Virus record (IMG/VR): IMGVR_UViG_3300045974_000359
Location: 1 to 59,321 of that record
Direction: 5' to 3' (one strand)
DNA length: 59,321 bases
Source of the DNA: a virus
Lineage: Duplodnaviria > Caudoviricetes
The notes beneath the pieces were generated by a model. It saw nothing but the letters and a program-made list of their open reading frames with translations. It did not search any database and was not told where the DNA came from. The position numbers and the translations under genes were made by a program. How positions within the stretch are numbered: position 1 is the stretch's first letter; each line of letters begins with the position of its first letter. Positions 2,737 through 55,662 of this stretch are shown here, piece after piece.

Positions 2737-4662
2737 ATGTGGCAACCAAATACGCTAAAGATTGAAAATTTAATAACTCATGAGAACACTACATTCAAAT
2801 TAAAAAAGAATAAGTGTATCATGATTTTCGGCATTAATTCTACTGATTCAGGCTCTGATAGTAACGGTGGAGGAAAATCTACTGTTTTAGAGGGTATAAC
2901 ATTAGCATTGACGGGTGAAACTAATAGAGATGTTTCAAAAGATGAATTTATCAGAGATGGTGAAGATGAATGTTATATTGAAATGGATTTATCTAATGAA
3001 GTTGGATTAGTAAATTCATTGACTATTAAAAGATGGTTTTTTAGAAAAAAATCTTCAAAAATAGAAATATGGGAAAATGGAGAACGAAACAAAGAAATAA
3101 CTTCAGTCAATGAAGCAAACAAAAGAGTTTTTGAATTAATAGGTTTAAATAAAGAGGACTTACTACACTTTTTTATGGTAGGTCAAGAAACAAATTATTC
3201 ATTTTTAACAGCTAATGATGGAGACAAAAAGGATATAATTTCCAGATTTTCAGACATAGAATTTATTAATGAAAAAATAGAAAAATTAAAACTTGAAAGA
3301 AAGTCCTTGGAATTAGAATTAATCGACAACTCCAGACTAATACAAAAGGTTGAAAATAAGATTGAGTTTTTAAACGATAGAAAAAATGAACTTAATGATA
3401 ATTTTGAAAAAGAAAATAATGAAAAAATTGAATCATTAAAATTAAAAATTTCTAAAGAGAAAAATAACAAAAAATCAAAGCAGAGTGAAATTGATGATTT
3501 AGATTTAAAAATTAAAAAATTCAATAATGATTTAGATTCATTAAAATTAGAAGACATATCTGAACTAAAAATAAAATTATCTAAAAACAACAAAAAGTCA
3601 AAAACTTTTGAAAAAGATATTGATGAGGCAGAACATACTATATCACATCTTGAGGCTATATATGAAGGCAAAATAACTTGTCCATCATGTAGTCATGAGT
3701 TTAATCCATCTGAGGATATTGAGGTTTCAGAAATTCCTACTTTAATTGAACAATCAAATAATATAATTTTAGAACTTACTAATCAAAAGCAAGTCGTAGA
3801 ACAACGAATTAAAAGTTTGAATGAAAAGATAAAATTAAATGAAGAAATTGAAGACAAAATTTCTGATTTAAAAAGGAAAATAAAAAGAAGTCAAACTGAA
3901 CTTGAAAGTTTAAAGGATGATTTAAAATCTTTTGATAAAAAGATAAAAAACATTGAAAGTCAGATTGAAGATTTAAAATCAAATTCTATTGATTCTGAAT
4001 TAGAAAAATTAGATTCAGATATAAAACAACAGAAAAAAGATTTTAAGAAAATAAAACTTGAAAAAGATGTTATTGATTTAAAAATTTTAGATATAGATTT
4101 TTGGATTTATCATTTTGGTAAAAAAGGATTTTTAACTTTTTTAACCAATAAGTCAATCAAATCAATTGAGGGAATAACTAACAGTTATTTGAAACAAATG
4201 AATTCAGAATTACAAATTTTGATAGATGGTTACACGGCTTTAAAAACTGGCGACATACGTGAGAAAATAAATATTTCTATAATAAGAAACGGACTTCAAG
4301 TTGCGAGTTTTAACAGATACTCAGGCGGTGAAAAAGGTAGGATAAAATTAGCAAATATTCTTGGACTTCAACATTTAATAAATTTGACAGCTAAAAATGG
4401 CGGTTTGAATTTTCTTGGACTTGATGAAGTTTTCGAGGGGTTGGATAGAACTGGTCAAATTGATGTTTTAAATATTTTAGAAAACTTAAAAGTGACATCT
4501 TTAGTTATCACTCACAGAAACCAACCCATTGGAGCATCAAACGAAATTTTCATAGAAAAAATAAATGGAATAAGTAGAATAGTAGATAAAAATTTTATAA
4601 ATTTACCACATGAAAAAAGTATCAAAAGCAAAATTAGAAAAATTAGAGAACAAGGCAAATAG
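2737..4662 (+). CDS. SbcC/Rad50-like ATPase (T4 gp46-like)
   Basis: NGGGKST Walker A, coiled coils, CPSC zinc hook, YSGGE signature, LDEVF Walker B. Confidence 0.92.
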   Translation: MWQPNTLKIENLITHENTTFKLKKNKCIMIFGINSTDSGSDSNGGGKSTVLEGITLALTGETNRDVSKDEFIRDGEDECYIEMDLSNEVGLVNSLTIKRWFFRKKSSKIEIWENGERNKEITSVNEANKRVFELIGLNKEDLLHFFMVGQETNYSFLTANDGDKKDIISRFSDIEFINEKIEKLKLERKSLELELIDNSRLIQKVENKIEFLNDRKNELNDNFEKENNEKIESLKLKISKEKNNKKSKQSEIDDLDLKIKKFNNDLDSLKLEDISELKIKLSKNNKKSKTFEKDIDEAEHTISHLEAIYEGKITCPSCSHEFNPSEDIEVSEIPTLIEQSNNIILELTNQKQVVEQRIKSLNEKIKLNEEIEDKISDLKRKIKRSQTELESLKDDLKSFDKKIKNIESQIEDLKSNSIDSELEKLDSDIKQQKKDFKKIKLEKDVIDLKILDIDFWIYHFGKKGFLTFLTNKSIKSIEGITNSYLKQMNSELQILIDGYTALKTGDIREKINISIIRNGLQVASFNRYSGGEKGRIKLANILGLQHLINLTAKNGGLNFLGLDEVFEGLDRTGQIDVLNILENLKVTSLVITHRNQPIGASNEIFIEKINGISRIVDKNFINLPHEKSIKSKIRKIREQGK

Positions 4663-13977: not shown

Positions 13978-15090
13978 ATGGAGGAAAATAAAGAAATTCC
14001 TAAAGGAGTAGTAGATGTAGAAGCGTATAATGAAAGTGTAAAGTTAGCCAAACACCCTATTATAAAAAACCCCTACTATACAACAAGTGAGGGTGTAGAA
14101 CTTAATCTTGGTATGATGGTACATATCTTACGCAAGAAAATAGAACATTTACCAGCGACAGAAATCGACAAGATTGAAAAATTAAAAGCGGTTTACTTCA
14201 AAATTAACAATAACCTTACAATCCAGAAACGTAGAGCGTTTGGAAAGAAACAAGGACAAGGACAAGGTAAAACCGAAAACGGCTCAATCTTTGAAAGTCG
14301 CAAAGAGGAACTACTTGAATACTTTGGTAGAATGTTTACAGTAGAAGATGTATTGAAGATTGTAAATATGGAGTGGGGTATTCCTATGGGAAAACATTCA
14401 TTGTACGACTTCAAAATGAAATATGCTGAAGAAGTTAAAAAGAGAATAGACAATCATCAATTAAGTTATCATAACATCAGGCTTGGTATTAAGAAATCAA
14501 GATTGGAAGAGTTATCGGAACTTTACAGAAAAGCAAAGGGAACTTGGGAAGACAACGCCAAACGTGAAGATTTAAGGATATTGCTTACAATATTAGAACA
14601 ATTGCGTAAAGAGGCAGAGGGTGACCGATTAACGATTGATGGAAAGGTTGATATAAAGTATGAGCAAAACATTCAAGTTCATTTAATGAAAGAAGTTTTC
14701 TCAACTACTAACTTAAAAGAAATCATACTTGGTAGAGTTGCCGCCAAAATGGGAATAAACCCAATCAAATTAATCTATTCACTTCAGAATAGTTATTACA
14801 AACAATATAGTAATGTCCTTGGGGATTTTGGTGAAGATGGAGAAAATACAGACTTACCATATCCATCTCAATTAAATTATGATTTTGAACGAATTGGAAA
14901 ACAATTTAATTTGAAAGATAAATTAATTGAAGATGCTATCATTGTTGAAGAAACTCAAAATACAAAAGATTTATCAAAAGGAATTTCTTTAAAAGAGAAA
15001 CTTGCTGCTAAATTGAAAAGTAAAACGCAAGATATTGAAAGATTCAAAACGAAATTAGAAGTAATGGATGAACGAAATAAAGACAAATAA
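13978..15090 (+). CDS. DUF2280-like protein, candidate terminase small subunit
   Basis: HTH-like segment followed by SRLEELSELY...LEQLRKEAEG pattern; preceded by the late motif. Confidence 0.5.
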   Translation: MEENKEIPKGVVDVEAYNESVKLAKHPIIKNPYYTTSEGVELNLGMMVHILRKKIEHLPATEIDKIEKLKAVYFKINNNLTIQKRRAFGKKQGQGQGKTENGSIFESRKEELLEYFGRMFTVEDVLKIVNMEWGIPMGKHSLYDFKMKYAEEVKKRIDNHQLSYHNIRLGIKKSRLEELSELYRKAKGTWEDNAKREDLRILLTILEQLRKEAEGDRLTIDGKVDIKYEQNIQVHLMKEVFSTTNLKEIILGRVAAKMGINPIKLIYSLQNSYYKQYSNVLGDFGEDGENTDLPYPSQLNYDFERIGKQFNLKDKLIEDAIIVEETQNTKDLSKGISLKEKLAAKLKSKTQDIERFKTKLEVMDERNKDK

Positions 15091-17306: not shown

Positions 17307-18340
17307 ATGAAAAGAAGTGAAACTGTAATAAAAGAGAAAATTTTACAATTACTACAATTTCTTCATGAATATCAAGAGCCTTGTTATGTTTATGAACTTG
17401 AAGAGTTATTTCCATCTATGCATCATAAAACAACTTATATTCCTGTGATGAAAGAATTAGGATATATTGAAACAGTTGGAAAGATGAGAAGTCGTCAATG
17501 GTATTATACCAAAGAACATGCTCCAACAATCAAAGATGCTAAACTAATATCTGAAAAAACGAGTCAAAAAAGATTTGAATATAAAAACAAAAATAAAGAG
17601 CCGATGGAAATAAAATTCGACAGAATAGGTAAAAGACAAATTTATGATTGGTTAATGTTTTTATCTAAAGTTAAAGAATCAAGATATCAAGCAATCAAAA
17701 TGGAAACTAAAGTAAATTTATCTTATGTCTTTATAAGAGCCATGCTTGAAAATAATATAATTGGTAAAAAAGATGAGGGTGTTAAAACTAAATACTTCAT
17801 TAAAACCGAAGTGATGCCTAATATTCATATGGTAGATAGGATATACAGAGCAGGACAATCTATTCAACATGCTTATAATAATAAGGCTCAAGATAACAAA
17901 GTTAATAAAATAGAACTTAAAAAAAGATATGAGTCAGAAATGAATGAAGAAGTAGTTGAAGAAAATTATACTTTAGATGACTTTAAAAATCATCTTGAAA
18001 TACTTAAAACAAAGTTATTCAACTCAACAGGAATAAGTACAGAAATGACTGTAAGATTTACTAACCAATTTATAATATAATTATGAAAAGTCAAGAACAA
18101 AAAGACCTTATGGTTGAAAATTTATCGAAAGCTAAAAAAAATGTTTCTAAAGTAGAAAGACCAGTTTGGGATGATACCGATTATGAAAGTTGTATAGAAG
18201 CAAAAATTCAAATCATAAAAGGAACTAAAAAAGTTGAAGATTATGAGGGATTTGACGAACAATGCGATGCTGCTTGTTTAGCTGAAGATTGGTTAAATGG
18301 AGAATTATCTGATAAACAATTATTAAAAAATTTATCATGA
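17307..18340 (+). CDS. Hypothetical proteins (17307-18080 possibly tandem winged-helix; 18083-18340)
   Basis: Two similar halves with wHTH-like patterns (ELGYIETVG / ENNIIGKK). Confidence 0.4.
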
Positions 18341-19188
18341 TAAGTAACCAAACATTCATGCGAATAGCATATCAAGTCGCATCAGAGAGTAAAGCAGAGA
18401 AACGTAAAGTTGGAGCTGTAATTGTAAAAGATAATAATATCATCGCATTAGGATATAACGGAACGCCAAGCGGTTTTGATAATTGTTGCGAAGATGAAGT
18501 TGAAAACTTTTCATACGAACAAAATGAAAATAAGTTAGCAGCTGGAGAAAATTTCGGAACTAAAGAAAAATTATTGAAGACACGTCCAGAAGTTTTACAT
18601 GCTGAAAGTAACGCTATATCAAAATGTGCTCGTTCAACCTATTCTTCAGAGGGTGCCGATATTTTCGTAACTACTGCGCCATGTATAGAGTGTGCTAAAC
18701 TAATAATACAAGCAGGAATCAAGAATGTCTTCTGGAGTGAGGAATATAAGACCATGGATGGAATAAGATTGCTGGAACAGGCAAAAATTTACGTTAAGAG
18801 AGTTATTGTTAAACTTGAACCTATCTTGATTAAAATTCCGAACTCTATGACCGATGAAGAGCGTGAGGAATTTAAAAAGAAGTGGATGGAGTTCCAAGCG
18901 TCAGATAAAACAATTTGGTTACCGAGTGATTGGGATAAAAAATGTAATCATGTTTGGAAAGCTGTTATTGAAGATGATAAACAATTCATTCAATCAAGTT
19001 ATGAAGCAGAATGTATTCATTGCGGAATAAGGGGTGGAGAAAATCCTATTGAATTAAAAAGATTGTATGATGAGCCAGAAGTTAAAGGTATTGTTAAGTC
19101 AATTATGATTTTAGCGAATGAAACTGATAATATTGGTAGATTAGAAAAATTTATAGATAGTAGTTTTGAAACTTTAAAGAATAAATAA
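18337..19188 (+). CDS. dCMP deaminase with C-terminal extension
   Basis: KVGAVIV, GYNGTP, HAESNAI, PCIECAK. Confidence 0.9.
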   Translation: MISNQTFMRIAYQVASESKAEKRKVGAVIVKDNNIIALGYNGTPSGFDNCCEDEVENFSYEQNENKLAAGENFGTKEKLLKTRPEVLHAESNAISKCARSTYSSEGADIFVTTAPCIECAKLIIQAGIKNVFWSEEYKTMDGIRLLEQAKIYVKRVIVKLEPILIKIPNSMTDEEREEFKKKWMEFQASDKTIWLPSDWDKKCNHVWKAVIEDDKQFIQSSYEAECIHCGIRGGENPIELKRLYDEPEVKGIVKSIMILANETDNIGRLEKFIDSSFETLKNK

Positions 19189-22701: not shown

Positions 22702-22974
22702 ATGAATCAAATCAAACCGATTGGTGATAGAGTTTTAATTGAACCTAAAGCACCTGAAACGCAAACTGCCTCTGGAATTATCATACCAGAAAGTACTCAA
22801 CAAAAAACTCAATTTGGTACAGTTATTTCTGTAGGTAATGGTAAACAAGGTGAACCCTTGACCGTTAAAGAGGGTGATTCAGTCATATACGAAAAATATG
22901 CTGGAACGGAAATGAAACTTGGAAACAAGGAATATCTTTTAATGAGAGAAGAACAAATTTTAGCAATACTTTAA
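22702..22974 (+). CDS. groES: Co-chaperonin GroES
   Basis: IKPIGDRVLI, TASGIIIP mobile loop, VKEGD.V, KYAGTE, LMREEQILA. Confidence 0.95.
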   Translation: MNQIKPIGDRVLIEPKAPETQTASGIIIPESTQQKTQFGTVISVGNGKQGEPLTVKEGDSVIYEKYAGTEMKLGNKEYLLMREEQILAIL

Positions 22975-23763: not shown

Positions 23764-23835
23764 TGCCGTATAGCTCAGCGTGTAGAGCACCAGAGACTAA
23801 TCTGGAGGTCAGAGGTTCAAGTCCTTTTACGGCAA
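23764..23835 (+). tRNA. Aberrant tRNA-like gene with a 6-nt anticodon loop (GACTAA); isotype undetermined
   Basis: Acceptor TGCCGTA/TACGGCA, D stem GCTC/GAGC, anticodon stem CCAGA/TCTGG, T arm AGAGG-TTCAAGT-CCTTT; D loop lacks GG; CCA not encoded. Confidence 0.75.
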
Positions 23836-24152
23836 CGATTGAATTGTTTGACGTTTTATTGAAATTTTGTTTGGACACGGGTTCGACACCCGTCACCTCC
23901 ACGAATAATTGTTTCCATAATTATTTTGTGTTATTTGATTTGTCCGTAGTAAATAAACGGAATGGTGGAACGTTTACCAGAGTGAGAAAACTGGTTGACC
24001 CTATTCGATGGTAATGAGAATTGAAATAATTTACCGAAATTGGGGGTGAGTTGGTTTTGACAGCAATTAAATAGGTAGAATTTAGATTCAATTAAAAAGT
24101 AACTCCAAAAGTTATAAACCTTTTTGGTAACTCAGTACAGGCTGCTGCGTAA
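23836..24152 (+). ncRNA. ssrA: Circularly permuted (two-piece) tmRNA: acceptor piece ~23836-23901, intervening segment, coding piece from 24042
   Basis: GGAC-ACGGG-TTCGACA-CCCGT-CACCTCC-A precedes GGGGGTG-AGTTGGTTTTGAC; 7-bp acceptor stem with G3.U70; tag ORF ...KVINLFGNSVQAAA* ends at 24152. Confidence 0.9.
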
Positions 24153-24184
24153 CTAAACGAAATTAAAGGATGCGAAAAATCCTT

Positions 24185-24217
24185 AAAAGAGGGGTAAATG
24201 AAAATTTACCCTTTTTA
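24185..24217 (+). terminator. Intrinsic terminator after the tmRNA coding piece
   Basis: ggggtaaa-tgaaaa-tttaccct followed by a T-tract. Confidence 0.75.
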
Positions 24218-24232
24218 TTGTAAATTATTTTC

Positions 24233-24323
24233 TCCACAAAAATAAGGAAAAACAAAAATATTTTAAAAAAAGATTGTAAAAAATTTTTTTCTTTGTAAAT
24301 TTCGTAATATCTTTGTACCATAG
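24233..24323 (+). promoter_or_regulatory. Early host-type promoter region, repeat copy 1
   Basis: TATCTTTG at 24308-24315; ~90 bp similar to 31121-31221. Confidence 0.8.
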
Positions 24324-24381
24324 AACTTTAATAACAGAGTTTATAAAATCAAAAATTAATTAATAAGTAAAATTTTTTATC

Positions 24382-31053: not shown

Positions 31054-31076
31054 GTTGGTTAATTAAGTTTGAAATG

Positions 31077-31110
31077 AAAGTCCTATATTAATTTATAGGA
31101 CTTTTTTTAT
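31077..31110 (+). terminator. Intrinsic terminator
   Basis: aaagtcctata-ttaatt-tataggacttt followed by a T-tract. Confidence 0.85.
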
Positions 31111-31120
31111 GTCTAAAATT

Positions 31121-31221
31121 TCCACAAAAATAAAGACATTGTAAAAAAGTTTTAAAAATTTACAAAAAAAGATTGTAAAAAATTTTTTTATTGTAAATAT
31201 TCGTAGTACCTTTGTACTATA
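31121..31221 (+). promoter_or_regulatory. Early host-type promoter region, repeat copy 2
   Basis: TACCTTTG at 31207-31214; similar to 24233-24323. Confidence 0.8.
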
Positions 31222-31244
31222 ATTAGAAACTAAATAAAAATATT

Positions 31245-33671: not shown

Positions 33672-34212
33672 ATGGCACCGACATCATTTTCAGCTAAAGG
33701 TAAAATTATCAGCATAGAAACTGTTAGAGAATTTGGCGATGTAAGATATTTAGAGTTAAAGATTGAATTACAAACATCACTTCAGATATTAGATTTTTAT
33801 ATTACAGAAAATAGTAATACTCCAAGAGCATTTCAACTTATAAGAAAAAATTTTGGAGAATATGGAGCATATCAAATTAATGAAGAAATTCAATTTGATT
33901 TTAATATCGTAAAGAATAAAAAAGATGAAACTAAATTAAAGATTTGGTCAATCTACAATAAAGGATTTAAAAATGGAATGGAAAGTTAAAATTGAAGAGC
34001 AATTAAAACAAGCAACTAATCAACGTAAAATCTCAACACCCTTAAAGAAATTAGTAAAAATAGTTTTAAGTGGAGATACAAGGTTTAATTTAGTGTATTC
34101 GAGTAGTAGAGAGCAATATGTTACTTTAGTTTTTAGAGAAACATTATCAAAACTTACTTCTTCAATACTTTTGAAAAATGGTTATAAACAAATTTACTTA
34201 AATAACAAATAA
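33672..34212 (+). CDS. Two hypothetical ORFs (33672-33989 OB-fold-like; 33973-34212)
   Basis: Coupled ORFs upstream of the modification genes. Confidence 0.45.
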
Positions 34213-35270
34213 TGGGATATGCTGAAGACAATCCAAGGACAAAGCAATATTTGCCTGACGATACTTTAGATGTATGTGAAGAAAATTTACATCTATTCTT
34301 TAAAACAATGTTTGATAGACAAAACATATGGTTTAAAAGATTTATTGAAAAGAAACCTGCTCCATGGACAAAAGATAAATTTCTAAAGGACTTTAAATTT
34401 ACAAATGTTTATAGAGAACTTGATAGAAATTCTCAATTTCAAATAGAGAATTTTTTCAAAAATCCTATTAGTAAAGTTGACCGAAAAGAATTGATTTGGA
34501 AAATAATGTTTTTCAGATTTTTTAATCAGCCTGAGTTTTTCAAGTTCATAGAAAAATTTACTATGGATGCGGATGAAGCAGGTGCTTGCGATTTTTCTTT
34601 TATAGGAATGATTCCAAGATATGAAAGATTTAAACCTGAGGAACTAAAACAACTAATGGAAGCATATAGAGAACAAGGTGGAAATCCTTTTACTAATGCT
34701 TATTTAACAAACTCTCAAGCATGCCCAGGCAAAACAAGAGATGAATGTTTCGCATTTAAAGTAATTCCTACTTTACATTCATTAATTCCTAAAATATCAA
34801 AAACTTTATTGTTAGCAAAAAGTCCTGACGATATCATAAAATTACTTTTGACACTTCCATCAGTTTCTCATTTTATGGCTCATGAATTTTATCAAGACTT
34901 TACATATGCTCCAAGATACTCTGGAATAAAATTAATGAAGTTTGACCAAGATGATTACACGAATGTTGGACCAGGTGCGGAAGTAGGAATAAGATTGATA
35001 TTTCCAAATAGAAAAAATAAAACCGAGAAACTACAAGCAATATATGACTTGAGAGATTTAGCGGTTGATTATCTTGAGCAGTTTGGAGATTTTAAATATT
35101 TAGCATACAATTCAATATCAGGCAATTATTTAGTAGATTACAATAAACCTCAAATAACTCTTCATCAAATAGAAATGTGGTTATGTGAATTTCAAAAATA
35201 TTGGAAGATGCTAATTGGAGAGGGTAAACAAAGAAGTCAATTTCAACCAAAAACAATAATTAATAAATAA
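34212..35270 (+). CDS. 5-hmdU DNA kinase / aGPT-pyrophosphorylase family protein
   Basis: PWTKD.FL..FKFTNVYRELDR, FRFFN, F.A.E...D, GPGA, IE..LCEFQKY. Confidence 0.85.
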   Translation: MGYAEDNPRTKQYLPDDTLDVCEENLHLFFKTMFDRQNIWFKRFIEKKPAPWTKDKFLKDFKFTNVYRELDRNSQFQIENFFKNPISKVDRKELIWKIMFFRFFNQPEFFKFIEKFTMDADEAGACDFSFIGMIPRYERFKPEELKQLMEAYREQGGNPFTNAYLTNSQACPGKTRDECFAFKVIPTLHSLIPKISKTLLLAKSPDDIIKLLLTLPSVSHFMAHEFYQDFTYAPRYSGIKLMKFDQDDYTNVGPGAEVGIRLIFPNRKNKTEKLQAIYDLRDLAVDYLEQFGDFKYLAYNSISGNYLVDYNKPQITLHQIEMWLCEFQKYWKMLIGEGKQRSQFQPKTIINK

Positions 35271-37992: not shown

Positions 37993-39588
37993 ATGTCAGA
38001 AATATCAAAGAATTTAGATGGGGTTGACCACTTAATATCAAAACTATCTATAAAGAAACAATTACTACTTCAAAAGGCGATGGCAAGTTCATCGCCAAAC
38101 GATATTTTAAAGGCTCAAAAAATTCTTCAAGGAATAGAGAACAGAGACAAGTCAGAAAAAAAATCATACATTCTTGACCCATTCGATTTTAATCAAACGT
38201 TTGGATATAAAGATAAACCTTTTATGATGAGTTATTCGACATTGAGAAATATGTCTAAAACACCTGTTATAAATGCGATTATAAAAACAAGAAAAAATCA
38301 AATTGCTGACTTTGCCGAACCTCAAGCTGATAAGTATTCAACAGGTTTCATAATTAGAAAAAAACTAAAATTTGGTCAAAATAGTAATGATAAACCTACT
38401 GATGAAGAATTAAGAATAATTGATGAAATTACAGATTTCATATTACATTGTGGAAATGGTAGCAATTGGGAGAATGACGACTTTGAAACATTCATTCGTA
38501 AGATAACTGAAGATAGTTTAGTTTTTGACCAAATGACTTTTGAAGTAACTCGTGATAAGTCTGGTAAACCTTATGAATTTTTCGCAACGGATGCTGCTAC
38601 ATATAGAATAGCTGATTCATATAATGATGACGAATATTCTGAAAAGGGCGGTAGATTATCAGAACAAAAAAATGGTTATTATCCAAGTTACGTTCAAGTT
38701 TTAAATGGAGAAATAAAAGCTGAGTTTTATCCTTGGGAATTATGTTTTGGAGTTAGAAATCCATCTACTAATATAAGTAATGTTGGTTATGGTATTTCTG
38801 AGCTTGAGGAGTTGGTTACAACAGTTACTTCTATGTTATGGGCAGAAGAGTATAACAGAAGATTTTTCAGTCAAGGTTCAGCACCTAAAGGATTGTTGAG
38901 AGTTAAAGGTCAAGTTAATGAAAAAGAATTATCTGCCTTTAGACAACAATGGAACGGAATGGTTCAAGGGGTTCAAAACGCTTGGAAGACACCTATTGTG
39001 GATGCTGATATAGATTGGATTGATTTACAAAAGAATAACCGAGATATGGAATATAATGCTTGGTTAGAATTTTTAATAAAAGTTTCTTGCGCCATATACT
39101 CTATTGACCCTAATGAAATTGGATTTAATATAAATGGTTCAAGCGGTTCAGCACCTATGTTTGAGGGTAAAAATGAACAAAAATTAAAACATTCAAAAGA
39201 TAAAGGTTTATATCCAATATTAAAATTCATTCAAAGAAAACTTAACAAGTATGTCGTTGCTCAACTTAATCCAGATTATGAATTTTTATTCGTAGGATTG
39301 AATGGAGTTACTATTCAAGAGGAACTTGAAATGGATATTAAAAAATCAACTTCACTTTATACTATTAATGAAATACGTCAAAAAAGAGGTGATGAACCTA
39401 TTGACGGTGGAGATATTATTTTGAATCCTACTTTTACTCAATCTAAAATGATGGCTGAACAAGCTGCTCAAGCAGGACAAGGTGGACAAGATGTAAACCC
39501 CTTTTTAATGAACGATGATGAAGATAATTTAGAGGATGACGATGAAAATCCTTTTTTGAAATCATTTTTAAATAATTTAGAAAAATAA
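37993..39588 (+). CDS. Portal protein
   Basis: AIIKTRKNQ, YGISELE, YNRRFFSQGSAPKG, DPNEIGF, TINEIR..RG..PI.GGD. Confidence 0.92.
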   Translation: MSEISKNLDGVDHLISKLSIKKQLLLQKAMASSSPNDILKAQKILQGIENRDKSEKKSYILDPFDFNQTFGYKDKPFMMSYSTLRNMSKTPVINAIIKTRKNQIADFAEPQADKYSTGFIIRKKLKFGQNSNDKPTDEELRIIDEITDFILHCGNGSNWENDDFETFIRKITEDSLVFDQMTFEVTRDKSGKPYEFFATDAATYRIADSYNDDEYSEKGGRLSEQKNGYYPSYVQVLNGEIKAEFYPWELCFGVRNPSTNISNVGYGISELEELVTTVTSMLWAEEYNRRFFSQGSAPKGLLRVKGQVNEKELSAFRQQWNGMVQGVQNAWKTPIVDADIDWIDLQKNNRDMEYNAWLEFLIKVSCAIYSIDPNEIGFNINGSSGSAPMFEGKNEQKLKHSKDKGLYPILKFIQRKLNKYVVAQLNPDYEFLFVGLNGVTIQEELEMDIKKSTSLYTINEIRQKRGDEPIDGGDIILNPTFTQSKMMAEQAAQAGQGGQDVNPFLMNDDEDNLEDDDENPFLKSFLNNLEK

Positions 39589-39593
39589 CAGTT

Positions 39594-41777
39594 ATGGCTG
39601 GAGAAAACGAAATAAGAGGCACGAAAAATTTAGGATTAATACAGGCTATATATGCTGGAATTAATCCTCCATTGAATACTAAAATAATTTGGTATGACGA
39701 TAATGTAGGTGTAAAATTACATAAGTATTATGACGTAACAATATCTCAATGGGTACCATTCGGAGGTAACGGAACTATAACTATAAATGGACATTATGTT
39801 TACATAGCATTCTCTTCAGATTGTAGTGGGGCAGATTTTAGTTTTACATTTGATGTAAATACACATACTCATACATCAATACTTTCATCAATCAATCCTA
39901 TTCCTAATAATCAATTAGTTCCAAATTTATTTAAAAATAAATGGATTAAATTTTGCGGAGATGAAAAGGGTGGTAATTATACTTACATAGCATTCGCTGA
40001 CGATTGTGATGGTAATAATTTTGGACTTGAACCTACTTATATTGGTGATTGCGGAAAATGTGAAATTGTAGATGGATATAAACCTTTTACTAAACCATCT
40101 GATGGATTACAATATGATTTAGTAGTTGACGGAACAACTGCTAATTTATCCTTTTCAGGCATAAGTCCTAAAACTATTGAAATTGATTTATATTTAGGAG
40201 GTAAAAAATTACTTGATGGATTACAATATTGTATAAAATTAAAAGTGCCTGGATATGTGAAGAATAAGTTTTACATTAGATTAGATGGTTCAGAGGTTGG
40301 TGGATATAGTTTTATTCCTAATGGTCAAGACCAAGAAATAAAATTCAAGAAAATAAATAATGGTTCAAAATTATATATTGAGTTTTATGAATCAAAAAAA
40401 GAATTGCGTGGAGAACTATCTTTTCAAATAGGAACTGAGGCTTGTTGTGAAGATAAGACTAAATGTAAAAAATGTAGAAAGTGTTGGGCAATAATAACTT
40501 CTGATACTCCAATTTTAGAATTATCTGCTGAAAATTTTAAAGATAAATGGGTTTGCGATTGTAGTTGTAATGATTCTGGTAGTAATGCCGATATTTTAAA
40601 TTTACAACAATTAATATATAATCTTGCTGAGATTCAAGTTTCAGACAAAGAGGAACTTTTGAAATTAATTAATGAACTTTATTCTTTACAAAAAAGTTTA
40701 ACTGAAGTCGTTCAAAATAATTACAATTCACTATCAGAAACTATAAATAAAAATAATCAAGCAATCTATTCATCAATAAAAAACATCAATAAACAAATAA
40801 ATGAAATTTTAATTTCTTTAGGTTTGATGCAAACTCAAGTAGATGATATAAATAAGGCATTGTCTGACGAAATATTTAATCCACGAGTAATAGCGTTAAT
40901 TGCTCAGAATTCAGGCAACGTAACTATTAATGAGAAGTTACAAATAATTGCTAATTCAAGTAATTTAGAATTAAAGTGGAAAAATAGAGATAGATTTTAT
41001 TACAAAAAACCTGAGCAAAATACAGTAGGTGTTCAAGACAGTATCTATACAAGAAATGGATTTATAGGATATGTTGAACCTACATTAGATGAATTTGGAG
41101 GAGTTAGATATATTACAGATTCAAAAGTTAAAGGTGGGGCGGTTCCAGCAAAAAAGGGTAAGGCTCAAGCAGTTCCTTTTTCTGAAGAAAGAAATCTTTG
41201 GGAAATTGATTTAATAAATAATCTTGTAATTAATCTTGATAAAAAAACTTGGAATTATATAAAAGATTTAAAACCCTTTATACAAATAACGAGATATAAA
41301 AATTCAAAAAATAAAGGAGCAGAAAATGTAAATTTCACAGGTGGAGTTGAAAAAAACATTAATCATACAAGTACATCTGGATTTAAAGTAAATAAAAAAG
41401 CACCTGCCTTTAGACCATCTAAAATTTACATAAATTCTAATTTTCAAGTTATAGATTTTGGACAAGAACATTACTTCAGAACAGACCAATATTTTTCAAG
41501 AGGTGAAACAGGCGGTATCTTAAATAGAGTTAAAGCAAGAGGGTTGTTAAATAGATTTGATACAACATTTCAATCAAATAAACCATATCAAAATGAAAAA
41601 ATGATTACAAAAAAATCTTGGATTTATTTAGAATTTAGTATTGGTTTTGAATATAATAAAACTGAAATTATATCTAAACCATTAAATAGATTAAAAATGA
41701 CATTTACTCTTGAAGATGGAAATGGGGATAATGGTTATGTAAAAAGATTAAATAGTATCAAATTCAAGTATGTATAA
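39594..41777 (+). CDS. Fibre/decoration-like virion protein with a basic C-terminal domain
   Basis: Repeated Y.YIAF..DC.G.[DN]F motifs, Cys clusters, central coiled coil. Confidence 0.55.
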   Translation: MAGENEIRGTKNLGLIQAIYAGINPPLNTKIIWYDDNVGVKLHKYYDVTISQWVPFGGNGTITINGHYVYIAFSSDCSGADFSFTFDVNTHTHTSILSSINPIPNNQLVPNLFKNKWIKFCGDEKGGNYTYIAFADDCDGNNFGLEPTYIGDCGKCEIVDGYKPFTKPSDGLQYDLVVDGTTANLSFSGISPKTIEIDLYLGGKKLLDGLQYCIKLKVPGYVKNKFYIRLDGSEVGGYSFIPNGQDQEIKFKKINNGSKLYIEFYESKKELRGELSFQIGTEACCEDKTKCKKCRKCWAIITSDTPILELSAENFKDKWVCDCSCNDSGSNADILNLQQLIYNLAEIQVSDKEELLKLINELYSLQKSLTEVVQNNYNSLSETINKNNQAIYSSIKNINKQINEILISLGLMQTQVDDINKALSDEIFNPRVIALIAQNSGNVTINEKLQIIANSSNLELKWKNRDRFYYKKPEQNTVGVQDSIYTRNGFIGYVEPTLDEFGGVRYITDSKVKGGAVPAKKGKAQAVPFSEERNLWEIDLINNLVINLDKKTWNYIKDLKPFIQITRYKNSKNKGAENVNFTGGVEKNINHTSTSGFKVNKKAPAFRPSKIYINSNFQVIDFGQEHYFRTDQYFSRGETGGILNRVKARGLLNRFDTTFQSNKPYQNEKMITKKSWIYLEFSIGFEYNKTEIISKPLNRLKMTFTLEDGNGDNGYVKRLNSIKFKYV

Positions 41778-41780
41778 CTT

Positions 41781-41970
41781 ATAGGAGGGTGTAGAGGTGA
41801 GTAAAAGATGTAACTGATTACATATTGAATTATGTATAAGTATCATTCAAATACAGATTTGAATTCGCATTTAAGATTTAAGAACGTGGTAATAGTTTAC
41901 TATTATCGTGTTTGGTAATTGGCTGCTGAGATAATCATTTAAATGAATACTTCTTGAATCACCCTCTTAT
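41781..41970 (+). ncRNA. Putative structured non-coding RNA 1
   Basis: Closed by ataggagggtg/caccctcttat; inner hairpins atgtaa/ttacat, attcaaat/atttgaat and a 13-bp aacgtggtaatag/ctattatcgtgtt stem with G-U pairs. Confidence 0.6.
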
Positions 41971-41988
41971 TTTTAAAATAAAGAAATT

Positions 41989-43068
41989 ATGTGTTGTGAA
42001 TGTGAAAATAATAGTGGAAATTTTACTTATGTAGCCTTTGCTACAGATTTGAATGGTTCAAATTTTTCTTTAAGTAGAAACTCTAATGGTATAAGTAGAT
42101 GTTATCAAGCAATCTATGTATCAGCCGTTGAGTTAGATACTAATTTGAGTATTTTTCCTAATTATTTCTATGGTAGATACTACAATATTTGTGCAGCTAA
42201 AGAAACAAATAATTATCATTTACCTACACCGATGATTGCTAAAAGAAAGGTTACTTTAGAGAAAGAAACTTCAAGACTAAATTTAGATGGTATATCAACC
42301 AGAAAATATCAATCTGAAGACTTGGCTAAATTCGATTTTGGCAATAGATATTATTTAGAACAACTTGACATATATTTCAATTCTTTTGGTAAAGAAAATA
42401 GTTGGTTATCATTACCTGATAAAAGACTTGAATTATGTTTAGTTTCAAACAAGAATTATAAAAATGGAGGCAGACCAGGCACTACAACGAGTGATATAAT
42501 ATTTTCTGGAGTTGGTAATAAAGATAATTTTACAAATGCTATTGTTCATCCAGCAAATTCATCTAAAGAAAATCCTACAATAACAGATACTATATTTTCT
42601 GGAGGTACTGTAGGAGAACCATTTTTTAAAACTGAATGGAAAATAAATGAAAATGATTTTTCTTTTGGAGAAAGTATTTTCAATGCATCTGGTTTGAACC
42701 GATTTAATAATCCAAATATAACTATTGAATTAGATGTAAGGAATTTTATTTTAAGAGGACATTCTAATGCATGGAGTTATCCTTATAATATTAGAGAAAA
42801 TGGAGACATAAAAATAAGAAATATTGGAAAAATAAGATTTGCTAATGGTAAATATTATAAAAGAAATTCAGTTTTATATTTTAGATTGAGCGCAGGAATG
42901 CCTTCAACATTAAATCAAAAAACAGGTGTTTATCAAAAAAGAATTTATAGTGATTTAAGTATTCCAATTTATATAAGTCCAAAAATAGGTATTTTTACAA
43001 GTAGAAATACTGGAGACCAGCTTGGTTTTCTTTATGGACATAGATTAACTTTAGGAATTAAGAAATAA
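41989..43068 (+). CDS. Paralogous fibre-like protein with a basic C-terminal domain
   Basis: N-terminal FTYVAFATDLNGSNFS matches the repeats of 39594; Cys-rich start. Confidence 0.55.
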   Translation: MCCECENNSGNFTYVAFATDLNGSNFSLSRNSNGISRCYQAIYVSAVELDTNLSIFPNYFYGRYYNICAAKETNNYHLPTPMIAKRKVTLEKETSRLNLDGISTRKYQSEDLAKFDFGNRYYLEQLDIYFNSFGKENSWLSLPDKRLELCLVSNKNYKNGGRPGTTTSDIIFSGVGNKDNFTNAIVHPANSSKENPTITDTIFSGGTVGEPFFKTEWKINENDFSFGESIFNASGLNRFNNPNITIELDVRNFILRGHSNAWSYPYNIRENGDIKIRNIGKIRFANGKYYKRNSVLYFRLSAGMPSTLNQKTGVYQKRIYSDLSIPIYISPKIGIFTSRNTGDQLGFLYGHRLTLGIKK

Positions 43069-43076
43069 TGATTTTA

Positions 43077-43258
43077 GCGGTACTCTCTCGATGATAAAAG
43101 TATAGAGTATCGCATTTTTAGACAATCTCTCTCGATGCCTCGGCAACAGTAGGTTTACCCTATTTTTAGAGAAAGTCATTATAGAACCCCTCTCTTGATG
43201 AAAAGTATAGAGGGGTTCATTAAACTTTGATAGACTCATTTTTTGAAGTCTATTTTTT
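43077..43258 (+). ncRNA. Putative structured non-coding RNA 2 (three related hairpins plus a terminator-like hairpin)
   Basis: Hairpins 43077-43113, 43121-43177 and 43184-43218 share a CTCT/AGAG closing stem and a CT[C/T]GATG loop start. Confidence 0.65.
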
Positions 43259-43321
43259 GTTTATACAACTATTATATCTTAAATAATGAATAAATTCAAT
43301 CCATTTAATAACTTATAGAAT

Positions 43322-43963
43322 ATGATTTTTCAAGTAGCATTATCAACCGTTTACAAAATGATTACATTTAAAAAAGGAAGTCTAACAATGTTATCATTAA
43401 CTCTATCTGGCAGTTCAATGCTATACATAAAAAAAATATTTGAGGGAACTGATTTAAAACATTTAATAATTCCAATTGTCATATTTTCAGTAGGTTTTGT
43501 TATGTATTTCATATTCTTATTAGCAGACTTATTTACAGGACTTCAAGTTGCTAAACATGAATCATTAAGACAAAATGATGGAAAACACGTTCCATATGTT
43601 AAATCATACAAATTATATAGAACACTTTGGAAACTTTTAGGAATAGTTTTATTAGCAGTATTAATGTTAATATCTGCCTTAATGGTTGAGATAATTGATT
43701 TATCTTTTTTATATAAAATATTCATAATGCTACAAGGAACAGTTTGGTTATTATCTTGCGGATTTGAATTACATTCAATAGGTGAAAATCATCTAAAAAG
43801 ATTTGGATATAAACCAAGAATATTTTTATTTTTTGATAAAATAATTAGTATATTTGAAAACAAAATAATCGACAAAGTAAATAAGACATTAGACGTTTTA
43901 GATTTACCAGCTGAAGAAGTTACTGATAACAATAATATAGATAAAAATGGACCAAGCGACTAA
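43322..43963 (+). CDS. Holin (phage holin 4-like)
   Basis: Multiple TM helices, DLFTG..A, S.KL.RT..K, E..SIGEN; precedes the endolysin. Confidence 0.75.
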   Translation: MIFQVALSTVYKMITFKKGSLTMLSLTLSGSSMLYIKKIFEGTDLKHLIIPIVIFSVGFVMYFIFLLADLFTGLQVAKHESLRQNDGKHVPYVKSYKLYRTLWKLLGIVLLAVLMLISALMVEIIDLSFLYKIFIMLQGTVWLLSCGFELHSIGENHLKRFGYKPRIFLFFDKIISIFENKIIDKVNKTLDVLDLPAEEVTDNNNIDKNGPSD

Positions 43964-44408
43964 ACAAAGAATTGACTTACTACATCCATCTGTTAGACAA
44001 GAGATGTTAAAGATAGTATCTGAATGTGATAAAGCATTAACAGGAAGAGCACATATGAGAATAACTCAAGGTTTAAGAACATTTGCTGAGCAAGATGCTT
44101 TATTTAATAAGAAACCGAAAGTTACAAATGCTAAAGGTGGTCAATCTATACATAACTATGGATTTGCCGTAGATATTTGTATGATTATAGATGGTAAAGA
44201 AGCAAGTTTTGATACTCATAAAGATTGGGATGGAGATAAAATTGCGGATTGGGATGAATGTGTAAAGATTTTTGCTTTAAATGGTTGGTCATGGGGTGGT
44301 AATTGGAATACATTTAAAGATATGCCTCACTTTGATAAAATCGGTTTAAACAATTGGAGAAATCTTATAAATAAAAAACGTGACTCTAAAGGATATGTTA
44401 TAATTTAA
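43947..44408 (+). CDS. Endolysin, M15-family (L-Ala-D-Glu-type) peptidase
   Basis: GLRTFAEQDALF, VTNAKGGQS.HNYG.AVD, WGGNW..FKD.PHF. Confidence 0.92.
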   Translation: MDQATKQRIDLLHPSVRQEMLKIVSECDKALTGRAHMRITQGLRTFAEQDALFNKKPKVTNAKGGQSIHNYGFAVDICMIIDGKEASFDTHKDWDGDKIADWDECVKIFALNGWSWGGNWNTFKDMPHFDKIGLNNWRNLINKKRDSKGYVII

Positions 44409-52574: not shown

Positions 52575-54152
52575 ATGTCAAATAAGTTTAAATTTTATAC
52601 ACCTGTAGAGATTAAGAAGTCCAAAGATGATAAAGGTAAAGATATCATGAAAATTGGAGGTATTGCTTCTACAAAAGATGAAGATAGTGATGGAGAATTT
52701 CTTGACCCTAATGGATTCATTTTAGATGACTTTTTAAAAGTAGGTTTTGTTAATTGGCATCATCAAGCTAAAAATAAACCTAAAACAATCGTTGGTGAAC
52801 CGTCATTAGCAGAAATAAGACCAGATGGACTTTATGTAGAATGTGATTTATATCCATCTTCAGAAATAGCAAAAGAAATATATGAAACTGCTCAAATTCT
52901 TGAAAAAGATAGTAAGACACGCAGATTAGGATTTTCTATTGAGGGTGAAGTTATAGAAAGAGGTTCAGAAGATGAAACTCACCCAGATTTTTTGATTGTT
53001 AAGAAAGCAAATATAACTGGGCTTGCTATTACTCATATGCCTAAAAATGCCGCTACTTTTGCTCAAATAATAAAAGGATTTACAGGAGATGAAGGTGTAA
53101 CTGATACTTCTGATTCAAATGTAGATGATGATAGTTCATTAAATACTAAAAATGGCAAAGCAATTATAAAAGAATCATTGAACAAAAAAATAAAAAAATT
53201 AGTGCCCGATGTTAATTCTGTAGAGAAATCTAAATTTGAAATAATTAATTTAGGTGAGGAAAAGATGTATGATAAAATTTTTGATACATTTACAGATATT
53301 AATATTGAAAAGGCTGAAAAAGTTTTTACATTGTTAACAAAAATTAGTCAAGATATGAAAAAAGGTAAAATAAATGATGATAAGCTGGAAAAAGCAATGA
53401 GTGCTTTAGGTTTAGAAGTCAATGAAGCAAACCCATTCCTTTCAAAAGCAAAATCTGAAGAAACCGATGAGGAAGATGATTCAGACGATGCTGACGAGAA
53501 AGTAAAAGCAGCTGCTAAAAAAATAGCAGACAAAGTTCAAAAAGAGGAATTTGGAACCAAAGTTGAAAAAGCTGAGGGTGACGAAGATGAAGAGGATGAT
53601 GAAGATGATAAAGATGATTTGAAAAAATCTAAAGAGTCATCTAATTTATCTGGAAATCAAAAAGGCTTATTTTTGTTATTCTCTAAAGAAATACAAAAAG
53701 CAAAATCTCAAAACACTGTTGAGAACAGAGCATTGGGAGTTTTAGTTAAAGGTATTCTTGATGAAAATCAACTTTTAAAAGGTCATATTGAAAAACAAAA
53801 TGACATGTTCTCATCTCAAGTTAATTTGATTGAAAGTCAAACGGAACTTATCAAAGGATTAGTAGAAAAGATTGAATCATTCGGAGCAGTTCCAGATGCA
53901 AGAAAATCTATTACTAAAGGATATGCTGAGAAATTCGCTCCAGAGAATAGAGAGATTGAAAAAGGTGCTAATGTTTTAAGTATTTCTAAAAACAGAACTC
54001 AAATTTTAGAAATTCTTGATGCAAAGACTTTCGCAAAAGGTTTTGACGATAGTTTAAGTAAAGCATGTACAACCTTTGAATCTACAGGAAAATTACCTGC
54101 TGATATCCTAAACAGATTGAAAGTAGAAAACGGAATTACAATCACTGAATAA
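52575..54152 (+). CDS. Prohead protease with scaffold-like C-terminal region
   Basis: IGGIAST..EDSDGE, NWHH, LGFSIEG, AIT..P.N; acidic, helical C-terminal half. Confidence 0.88.
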   Translation: MSNKFKFYTPVEIKKSKDDKGKDIMKIGGIASTKDEDSDGEFLDPNGFILDDFLKVGFVNWHHQAKNKPKTIVGEPSLAEIRPDGLYVECDLYPSSEIAKEIYETAQILEKDSKTRRLGFSIEGEVIERGSEDETHPDFLIVKKANITGLAITHMPKNAATFAQIIKGFTGDEGVTDTSDSNVDDDSSLNTKNGKAIIKESLNKKIKKLVPDVNSVEKSKFEIINLGEEKMYDKIFDTFTDINIEKAEKVFTLLTKISQDMKKGKINDDKLEKAMSALGLEVNEANPFLSKAKSEETDEEDDSDDADEKVKAAAKKIADKVQKEEFGTKVEKAEGDEDEEDDEDDKDDLKKSKESSNLSGNQKGLFLLFSKEIQKAKSQNTVENRALGVLVKGILDENQLLKGHIEKQNDMFSSQVNLIESQTELIKGLVEKIESFGAVPDARKSITKGYAEKFAPENREIEKGANVLSISKNRTQILEILDAKTFAKGFDDSLSKACTTFESTGKLPADILNRLKVENGITITE

Positions 54153-54174: not shown

Positions 54175-55662
54175 ATGAATCCAGGACTAAATTTGCAAGA
54201 TTATGCAAAAGCAGCTGCTAACAATCCGTCAGCTGTCTTTGGTGGTTCTTCAATGGAAGAACTTAACCAATTACAAAAAGCATTGGAGGCAGGCTCGATA
54301 ACTGGCCGTGAAACAACGGACATGACATCTGCGTCTGGTGCTCCATTAAAGGTTGAATCTTTAGACAAAAATCTAAAGCACTTAACTTTTAAAGAAACAG
54401 ATATTCAACTTTGGAAGATGTTGCCTAAAAAAGCTGCTTACAACACTGTTGAAGAATACAACCAATTAGTTGACTATGGTCAATCAAGAGGAGGTTTTTA
54501 CAATGAGGGTGAATTACCATCAGAAGAAGAATCAATGTATGTTCGTAAAGCACAGTTAGTTAAATTTATGGGAGTTGTGAAATCAGTTTCTCACCCTATG
54601 ACTTTAGTAAACACTAACGTTGGTAACATTATTGAAAGAGAAATCAAAAACGGTACTCTTTGGATTTTGAGACAATTAAATAAATCATTATATTTTGGAG
54701 ATGAATCTTTGGTTCCTCAAGAATTTAATGGATATTTAGCTCAACATCAAAAAGATAGTGGGTATGCCGATTTAGATGCGTATTTCGACTCAGATGTTGT
54801 AATCGACTTGAGAGGTAACTCTTTACAAGAAAAAGATATTGAGGGTGCTGCTAATGGTATCGTTCAAAACTTTGGTTTAGGTAACCAATTATTTGCTCCG
54901 CCATCTGTATTATCAAAATTCGTTACTAACTTTTATGGTAACAAATTTATCCAACCAAATACTTCAGCATTAAGCGATGGAGTTATGGGTCAAAGAGTAA
55001 AATCTTTTGAATCTCAATTTGGTAATATCGGATTGAATTGGGATATTTTCTTTAACAAGAAAGCACCAAGAAGATATAATGCGGGTAATACTTCACCAAT
55101 GGCTCCAAACGTTCCTACTGCTTTAACAGTTACACCTGTTGCCGTAGATGGTTCATCAGCTTGGGCTGTTTCTGATTCAGGAAACTATATATATGCCGTT
55201 GCGGCTGTAAATAGATATGGAGAGTCAAGTTTAGTATATACTGCTACACCTGCTACAATCGTTGCTGGAGGTGCCGTAAATATCGACTTTACAGATGGAG
55301 CAGGATTGAATCCAGCATCTTCTTACACTATTTATAGAAGTAATAAAGGTGCTACTGCTGCTAATGCTGCTGGTGTAATGTTTTATCCTTTATTTACTGT
55401 TTCTAAACAAGAGCAAATCAATGGATTTGACGGTGGAGCAAACGGTGTTGTAAGAGATAGAAACAGATGGATGCCTAATACAGACCAAGCAATCTTATTC
55501 CAAATGGATAACGAGGTTATTGAGTTTGCACAATTAGCACCTCTTATGAAGATGGATTTAGCCTTGCTTGCTCCAGCTTACAGATTTATGATTCTATTGT
55601 ACGGAACTCCATTCTTGTACGCTCCAAAGAAAATGGTTAGAATTGTGAATATTGGCGCATAA
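54175..55662 (+). CDS. Major capsid protein (SPO1/Twort-like)
   Basis: LQKAL.AG, APLKVESLD, TVEEY, EFNG, inserted FN3-like YAVAAVNRYGES domain, L.PLMKMDLA, LYGT. Confidence 0.93.
   Translation: MNPGLNLQDYAKAAANNPSAVFGGSSMEELNQLQKALEAGSITGRETTDMTSASGAPLKVESLDKNLKHLTFKETDIQLWKMLPKKAAYNTVEEYNQLVDYGQSRGGFYNEGELPSEEESMYVRKAQLVKFMGVVKSVSHPMTLVNTNVGNIIEREIKNGTLWILRQLNKSLYFGDESLVPQEFNGYLAQHQKDSGYADLDAYFDSDVVIDLRGNSLQEKDIEGAANGIVQNFGLGNQLFAPPSVLSKFVTNFYGNKFIQPNTSALSDGVMGQRVKSFESQFGNIGLNWDIFFNKKAPRRYNAGNTSPMAPNVPTALTVTPVAVDGSSAWAVSDSGNYIYAVAAVNRYGESSLVYTATPATIVAGGAVNIDFTDGAGLNPASSYTIYRSNKGATAANAAGVMFYPLFTVSKQEQINGFDGGANGVVRDRNRWMPNTDQAILFQMDNEVIEFAQLAPLMKMDLALLAPAYRFMILLYGTPFLYAPKKMVRIVNIGA

Follow-up and report, generated by a model that had tools for sequence, protein, structure and literature searches.

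The window analysed here is the whole of IMG/VR virus record IMGVR_UViG_3300045974_000359 (59,321 bases, approximately 28% G+C, completeness estimate 60%), and the subject of this work is a pair of fibre-like genes in it, open reading frames ORF1 and ORF2, together with the folded non-coding gaps that follow them, IG1 and IG2. All window genes lie on the + strand, to which the coordinates below refer, mostly packed end to end. With about 10 gaps of at least 100 nucleotides (nt) among some 95 ORFs, the tight packing stated in the original prediction, a note made from the sequence without database searches, is borne out. The cultured-phage DNA matches of the window are only to Flavobacterium, Chryseobacterium and similar phages. 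ORF1 (39594-41777 in the ORF list, 727 amino acids) lies directly 3' of the portal gene (37993-39588; Pfam Phage_portal, E 5e-23; phrog_12, E 4e-51), as do its homologues at three other loci (L005, L003 and L011). Behind it come IG1 (41778-41988, 211 nt), ORF2 (41989-43068 in the ORF list, 359 amino acids), IG2 (43069-43321, 253 nt) and two lysis genes, one for a membrane protein (phrog_14595, 43322-43963) and one for an M15 endolysin recognised with Pfam and PHROG (43947-44408).

The two fibre-like proteins and their C-terminal domains

ORF1 is composed of an N-terminal anchor, two Y.YIAF..D..G..F repeats, a coiled-coil-like middle (residues ~331-454) and a basic, all-beta C-terminal domain that I call the X domain (residues 455-727; 40956-41774; alignment A7). 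ORF2 has a single N-terminal repeat, as in ORF1, followed by the Y domain (residues ~77-359; 42217-43065; alignment A10). The repeat, Y.Y[IV]AF..D..G..F in its general form, is the sole part that the two proteins have in common (BLASTP, E 3e-6 and 7e-5), and the prediction of a repeat common to the two genes was therefore correct. So was the prediction that both C-terminal regions are basic (isoelectric point (pI) 9.75 for ORF1 and 9.65 for ORF2); the N-terminal parts are acidic. By contrast, the "loosely parallel motifs" described in the two C-terminal domains did not withstand comparison: BLASTP aligns them at E 0.26 and in a different register, the X domain of L011 matches ORF2 at E 16, and profile-profile comparison gives a probability of 8.6%. 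ORF1 matches a three-sequence X-domain profile at E 6e-71, and the L011 domain at 2e-5 by BLASTP; ORF2 gave no match to the X-domain profile (C-terminal ~170-270 residues). To judge from these comparisons, the X and Y domains appear to be separate families whose relationship to each other is not demonstrable. Upstream of ORF2, the segment 41971-42008 resembles 39930-39967, in the second repeat of ORF1, so that the likeness reaches to 18 nt 5' of the ORF2 start; this extension is in frame and contains a stop codon, which hints at an origin of ORF2 from an ORF1-like repeat, through duplication or recombination. The ORF1-like proteins P0003, P0004 and P0005 pair, in that order, with the ORF2-like proteins P0159, P0158 and P0160, the contigs having the same three lengths, which suggests that the tandem is kept in three close relatives.

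Neither ORF1 nor ORF2 matched a Pfam or PHROG family, and tblastn against cultured phages gave no match for either. Searching 1.84 billion representatives with the X-domain profile returned 199 clusters at E<=1e-3, 114 of them at E<=1e-10, many of the matches being small proteins of 215-260 amino acids; no prophage copy of the domain was found in 185,579 species genomes. The domain is C-terminal, capping proteins with differing N-terminal bodies, and is basic in 14/14 members (pI 8.6-10.0 over the last 200 residues). Its AlphaFold (AF2) model is an all-beta sandwich with a predicted local distance difference test (pLDDT) score of 79 and a predicted template modelling score of 0.79. With this model Foldseek found nothing at E<=1e-3 in the PDB and a single unnamed phage protein (E 1e-8) in BFVD, and VIA-align gave weak matches to FN3/Ig-like domains (best Z 5.7), among them the FN3-like domains of the lambda J and Chi tail tips (Z 4.8-4.9). 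The Y domain, the C-terminal ~280 residues of ORF2, belongs to a family of 19 proteins; its model is weaker than that of the X domain (pLDDT 65), with FN3-like VIA-align matches at Z 5.2 or less. The best rows of the fold searches with both models contained no RNA-binding fold and no ToxN-like nuclease. The architecture is modular, with conserved N-termini and variable C-terminal domains, and in L016 the X-domain gene stands between two genes that match PHROGs of tail fibres (8469 and 5073). From architecture and gene context, ORF1 and ORF2 are putative fibre proteins.

Folding of IG1 and IG2

Each gene is directly followed by an ORF-free folded element of about 190 nt, as had been predicted, starting 4-8 nt after the stop codon. 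The IG1 element, delimited by folding and pair probabilities, runs from a closing helix to a U-run (41781-41974). IG1 has a minimum free energy (MFE) of -48.3 kcal/mol (z -3.79; 0/200 shuffles as stable), compared with -33.8 for the - strand. Its closing helix of 11 base pairs (bp; 41781-41791/41960-41970) starts 4 nt past the ORF1 stop and has pair probabilities of 0.71-0.999, those of most pairs being 0.94-0.999. Inside it are a second helix (41795-41803/41948-41955) and three hairpins (41819-41836, 41845-41864 and 41882-41913); the U-run (TTTTT, 41970-41974) stands 14 nt upstream of the ORF2 ATG. IG2 (MFE -61.6 kcal/mol, z -3.96; 1/200 shuffles as stable) folds into an element (43077-43263) of three hairpins, H1 (43077-43113), H2 (43121-43177) and H3 (43184-43218), the first starting 8 nt past the ORF2 stop. 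Their loops begin with CUCGAUG in H1 and H2 and with CUUGAUG in H3. The 3' part consists of a weak hairpin (43229-43254) and a U-run from 43253.

These z-scores are not exceptional by themselves, because other window gaps, which hold simple hairpin terminators, score alike (z -3.9 to -4.9); what is unusual in IG1 and IG2 is size and branching. IG1 has the G+C-rich stem (6 G-C pairs of 11 bp) and the U-run (TTTTT) of a rho-independent terminator. It does not have the short loop of 3-8 nt, its closing helix enclosing 168 nt of helices. IG2 has a terminator-like end in its weak hairpin and T-run. No Bacteroidetes-type TAnnTTTG promoter motif is present on the + strand of either gap. Rfam 15 identifies in the window only a transfer-messenger RNA (tmRNA) and a transfer RNA (tRNA), both outside IG1 and IG2. 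No Rfam family was matched at E<=10 by IG1, IG2 or the L011 element, or at E<=0.5 at eight further loci; the best Rfam score in the elements was for RAGATH-34 in L011, 22 bits against a threshold of 61. The earlier statement that no named family is recognisable is in keeping with this. The DNA of IG1 and IG2 resembles cultured phages at chance level only (E >=0.2). Among sequencing runs, none of RNA was listed as a carrier, and two of DNA carry variants.

Structured gaps behind the same gene class in other phages

The comparison set comprised every X- or Y-domain gene that could be placed on DNA, from several phage lineages, with ORFs called from ATG starts only by a simple caller. The X loci are window ORF1, L005, L011, L016 (=L025), L019, L024, L020, L018 (=L021), L022, L017 (=L023), L132 and the cultured phage FpV9; the Y loci are window ORF2, L133 and L134. 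A structured non-coding stretch of 138 to ~320 nt lies behind 15/15 distinct X/Y genes. Gaps of at least 120 nt follow 13 of 14 X/Y genes (FpV9 being left out of this count) and 17 of 208 other genes at the same 17 loci (Fisher p 4e-12, a test that overstates independence because the loci are related). For the exception, L024, the ORF was called too long and runs into a full-length match of the RNA model (3218-3346). In L011 the X domain is carried by an ORF2-type gene and the element is still directly behind it. Conversely, no element of this kind follows the fibre genes that have neither domain (in L003, the ORF1-type gene of L011 and the short ORF2-type gene of L005). The link between an X/Y-domain fibre gene and a dedicated structured element is therefore real and conserved well beyond the window.

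The original prediction had gone further, suggesting that protein and RNA form cognate pairs that vary as a unit and raising the question whether homologues are always followed by a covarying structured element. The adjacency of domain gene and element holds at all 15 loci, and covariation is strong in one lineage; homology between the elements of different lineages is not detectable, and RNA type and protein family do not go together. The X domains of L005 and L011, for instance, are 32% identical and their elements are unlike (~100 nt with z -3.45 versus 219 nt with z -10.4). No published description of such elements was found in literature searches; the supplements of PMC10690425, which hold phage RNA candidates, may contain some of the loci.

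Classes of element

Covariation was seen in an X-type lineage, group 2, whose elements are three-way junctions made of three repeat units. In the alignment of four sequences 90% of cells are paired, versus 46-59% in slid controls, and 15 of 33 pairs are changed on both sides, a result that 0/500 shuffles reach; with six sequences, in an alignment fitted to the model, the count of such pairs is 26 of 33. Covariance model R1 finds L018 and L022 (E 4e-4) and model R2 finds L017 (E 1.8e-4), and the two together match L016, L019, L024, L020, L018, L022 and L017. Neither matches IG1, IG2, L005, L011, L132, L133 or L134; the best score in IG1 and IG2, with filters off, was 7.8 bits. Scanning IMG/VR DNA for the group-2 junction word produced 104 single chance matches and, among 80 loci, one with two words, which was coding.

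The Y-type elements consist of three hairpins. No alignment of the three elements was obtained with MAFFT/RNAalifold, and their stems are very different; the loop core U.U.GAU is present in 8/8 aligned units from three phages. Three hairpins with conserved loops occur in IG2, L133, L134 and FpV9, and in two genomes that are 94-100% complete the three-hairpin cluster is single. In 11/11 X-type elements the sense strand is more stable than the antisense strand (-89.7 versus -43.3 in L011), whereas both strands of the three Y-type elements fold about equally. A U-run (>=5 T) stands right behind the fold in 10 of 14 elements. The collection thus contains several new RNA motif candidates, one of them with solid covariation.

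The X-domain gene of the cultured phage FpV9 (product ALN97200.1) is a distant member of its family (hhalign 94.8%, E 5e-8). In the ~205 nt behind it come, in order, three tandem hairpins of the form NN-AUUCUUCGGAAA-NN, a canonical terminator, a TAACTTTG promoter motif and a good ATG. The terminator is separate from the hairpins and 3' of them, and the hairpin array lies in the 3' untranslated region (UTR). In the deposited record (KT876725.1) the coding sequence of the next protein, ALN97201.1, starts at a TTG 12 nt past the preceding stop; its first ~61 codons span the hairpins, the terminator and the promoter motif (L136 2695-2905, corresponding to ~14487-14697 of the record). Translation probably begins instead at the ATG of MCNENINN.

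A proposed cis-acting 3' element of the fibre message

The structures, their position and strandedness, their conservation as a class behind X/Y-domain genes and the covariation in one lineage, all observed here, are what an interpretation has to accommodate. I give about an even chance to the reading in which IG1 and IG2 are cis-acting 3'-UTR or intercistronic elements, each serving as a leaky terminator, a protector of the 3' end and possibly a platform for protein binding. The pairing of gene and element probably gives fibre messages a specialised RNA tail, one of putative function. As sense-strand RNA structures, IG1 and IG2 would form the 3' tails of the fibre cistrons within a long late transcript. 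The closing helix a few bases past the stop, together with the U-run, would halt part of the polymerases, and the compact multi-helix fold would shield the 3' end of the fibre message, while the other polymerases would go on to transcribe ORF2 and the lysis genes. As a result, the fibre message would have its own level and lifetime, set relative to the downstream genes. The unpaired conserved motifs and the three-arm layout may be recognised by a bound factor, either a host or a phage protein, perhaps the fibre protein itself.

The cis-acting reading is favoured because the element starts right past the stop and has a closing helix and a U-run, because IG1 and IG2 contain no promoter motif and the next start codon is near, and because in FpV9 the hairpin array precedes a terminator of its own standing. 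With no promoter motif in the gaps and ORF2 starting 14 nt past the U-run, the downstream genes need read-through. Most elements, moreover, look like a closing helix and a U-run at the end of a cistron, which makes a cis role simpler than a ribonucleoprotein. Several observations weigh on the other side. The five further terminators in the window are plain hairpins, and a terminator role alone would not call for such complexity, for conserved loop motifs or for a three-fold layout. A terminator consensus scan found no site in IG1 or IG2; it misses them because 100-170 nt lie within their closing helices, in place of a loop of 3-8 nt. The U-run behind the fold is missing in L011, L020 and L133, and in L132 the runs are inside the fold. 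Several group-2 elements have weak z-scores (0.0 to -1.8), and the relatedness of the loci tempers the Fisher test. Finally, the elaborate three-fold layout and the conserved unpaired motifs are not explained by a cis role, and therefore suggest a bound factor.

If that factor were the fibre itself, the element and the protein would form a cognate ribonucleoprotein, as the original prediction had it: the fibre, a trimer, would use its basic C-terminal domain to bind the RNA that its own gene is followed by. The RNA could then act in feedback on the message, as a three-fold scaffold or chaperone of trimer assembly at the site that in other phages is taken by the gene of a fibre-assembly protein, or as a component of the virion. 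I consider this a live rival, if a rather unlikely one. It would account for the basic character of all 14 X-domain members examined, for the three equivalent units per element (the group-2 junction and the hairpins of IG2, L133, L134 and FpV9), for loop and junction sequences that are kept while the stems change, and for an adjacency so strict that it persists when the X domain sits on another gene, as in L011. However, both models resemble FN3/Ig-like sandwiches weakly, a fold that occurs in receptor- and carbohydrate-binding modules, and a basic surface would be expected equally for binding anionic cell-surface polymers. The RNA side does not follow the protein side either: neither R1 nor R2 detects the elements that follow the X domains of the window, L005, L011 and L132, and the L005 and L011 elements differ as widely as described above. 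A particular version, in which an RNA of three-fold pseudo-symmetry partners the trimeric fibre tip and nucleates or guides trimerisation of the basic C-terminal domain as a substitute for a protein chaperone, is improbable; such a partner would possibly act on the 3' end of a message under translation, or travel with the fibre. It is likewise improbable that processing of the fibre message releases its 3' end as a stand-alone small RNA acting in trans on host or phage targets, for example as a decoy against host defence. Compact, strand-specific elements with a terminator-like 3' end, conserved in one lineage, are compatible with such an RNA, and their fast sequence turnover between lineages fits an arms race, but the strict link to one gene class would be left unexplained, and no Rfam family, those of ToxI-type antitoxin RNAs included, was matched at the loci and E limits given above.

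Two further explanations were weighed. The least probable of all, to my mind, is that the elements work as DNA, either as a recombination boundary for receptor-binding cassettes or as a single-strand DNA hairpin signal. The region from portal to head morphogenesis does vary between relatives, the X domain occurs on different N-terminal bodies, and the Y-type folds are equally stable on both strands. Yet the strand asymmetry of the X-type elements (11/11), with many G-U pairs, points to a sense RNA; covariation preserves pairing and not sequence; and lineages that would be expected to exchange modules have no elements in common. That the gaps are ordinary terminators and AT-rich spacers folding by chance would agree with their U-runs and with z-scores of -3.8 and -4.0 that other window gaps equal. 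This explanation is already unlikely from the comparative data, and carries little weight with me, given the 15/15 recurrence, the size of 138-320 nt, the covariation and the invariant loop motifs on differing stems.

Other candidates were tried and rejected. A group I intron or split gene is contradicted by the absence of an Rfam intron match and by the ORF1 homologues of L003 and L011, which abut the next gene. For the template repeat of a diversity-generating retroelement, IG1 and IG2 lack any repeat in common with the 3' ends of the upstream genes. A dispersed repeat or miniature inverted-repeat transposable element does not agree with each element being single-copy in the record and the hairpin motif being confined to IG2. 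The CUGAUGA and GAAA words of group 2 have a hammerhead-like appearance; their strand order is unfit and there is no Rfam match. A leader of the phrog_14595 gene was discarded, FpV9-type phages having that gene with no gap upstream of it.

Relation to known elements

Intercistronic 3' hairpins that stabilise or process phage mRNAs are familiar from the T7 RNase III sites and from lambda sib/tI retroregulation. Like these and like intrinsic terminators, the present elements occupy the place behind a cistron of a polycistronic phage transcript and combine a helix with a U-run, and the level of the upstream message is the expected target. Unlike them, they are 140-320 nt long, multi-branched, often with three equivalent arms and with unpaired motifs that are conserved; they accompany a single gene class, and the standard terminator scan is silent on them. 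Arrays of 3' intergenic hairpins able to protect mRNA, as proposed here, are also formed by repetitive extragenic palindromic (REP) sequences and the mosaic elements (BIMEs) built from them. REP elements are dispersed in many copies, whereas the elements described here occur once per genome.

Structured RNAs that work with a protein offer other comparisons. The prohead RNA (pRNA) of phi29 is likewise structured and encoded by a phage, and it cooperates with a virion protein that is multimeric: it binds the portal and drives packaging, and it is encoded elsewhere in the genome. No likeness between it and the present elements was found in sequence or structure. ToxI, the RNA of type III toxin-antitoxin systems, consists of tandem repeats of ~36-45 nt, forms a three-fold assembly with protein and precedes the gene of a ToxN-type endoribonuclease. 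Here, by contrast, the repeats come after a fibre gene, and there is no Rfam match. In concept, the closest described analogue is the L17 downstream element (RF01708), which is described as a structured 3'-UTR motif of the gene of one protein, with feedback by the encoded protein proposed, and as having its sense strand favoured by G-U pairs, as here (PMC2864571). It differs in host, gene and structure, and no Rfam match links it to the present elements.

Other features of the window

The word ATAACTTATAG stands at the ORF1 stop (41774-41784) and again at 43309-43319, just 5' of the membrane-protein start, and so brackets IG1, ORF2 and IG2; in DNA this rich in A+T, chance may account for it. 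At 23764-24152 a tRNA (55 bits; odd anticodon loop in ARAGORN) has a permuted tmRNA immediately behind it (RF04321, 63.5 bits, E 6e-10), and the phage therefore has its own tmRNA gene of the two-piece type. The segments 24153-24381 and 31054-31244 have in common a long conserved block, AAAAAAAGATTGTAAAAAATTTTTTT..TTTGTAAAT.TTCGTA.TA.CTTTGTAC.ATA, 3' of a terminator hairpin; the block contains TAnnTTTG and is therefore probably a repeated phage promoter region. The window also encodes a 5-hydroxymethyldeoxyuridine (5-hmdU) DNA kinase helical domain (34212-35270, E 5e-46) and a dCMP deaminase (18337-19188), which suggests hypermodified thymidine in the phage DNA. Further genes are those of a GroES-like Cpn10 (22702-22974), a head maturation protease (52575-54152) and a major capsid protein (54175-55662) that matches an SU10-type family (E 9e-8).

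Significance

The host range of phages is decided by their receptor-binding proteins, and the transcription and translation signals of Bacteroidota depart from the textbook ones. What emerges here is a rule: genes with an X or Y fibre-tip domain carry, right past the stop codon, a large and often three-armed structured RNA for which no Rfam counterpart was found. With FpV9 on Flavobacterium psychrophilum, a cultured phage offers a concrete case in which to test it. Should the RNA bind the fibre, it would represent a new kind of phage ribonucleoprotein, and, if it proved to be an assembly partner, an RNA that does what a protein assembly factor of tail fibres does elsewhere. With a cis element instead, these phages would possess an unusually elaborate 3'-UTR device for controlling their fibre genes.

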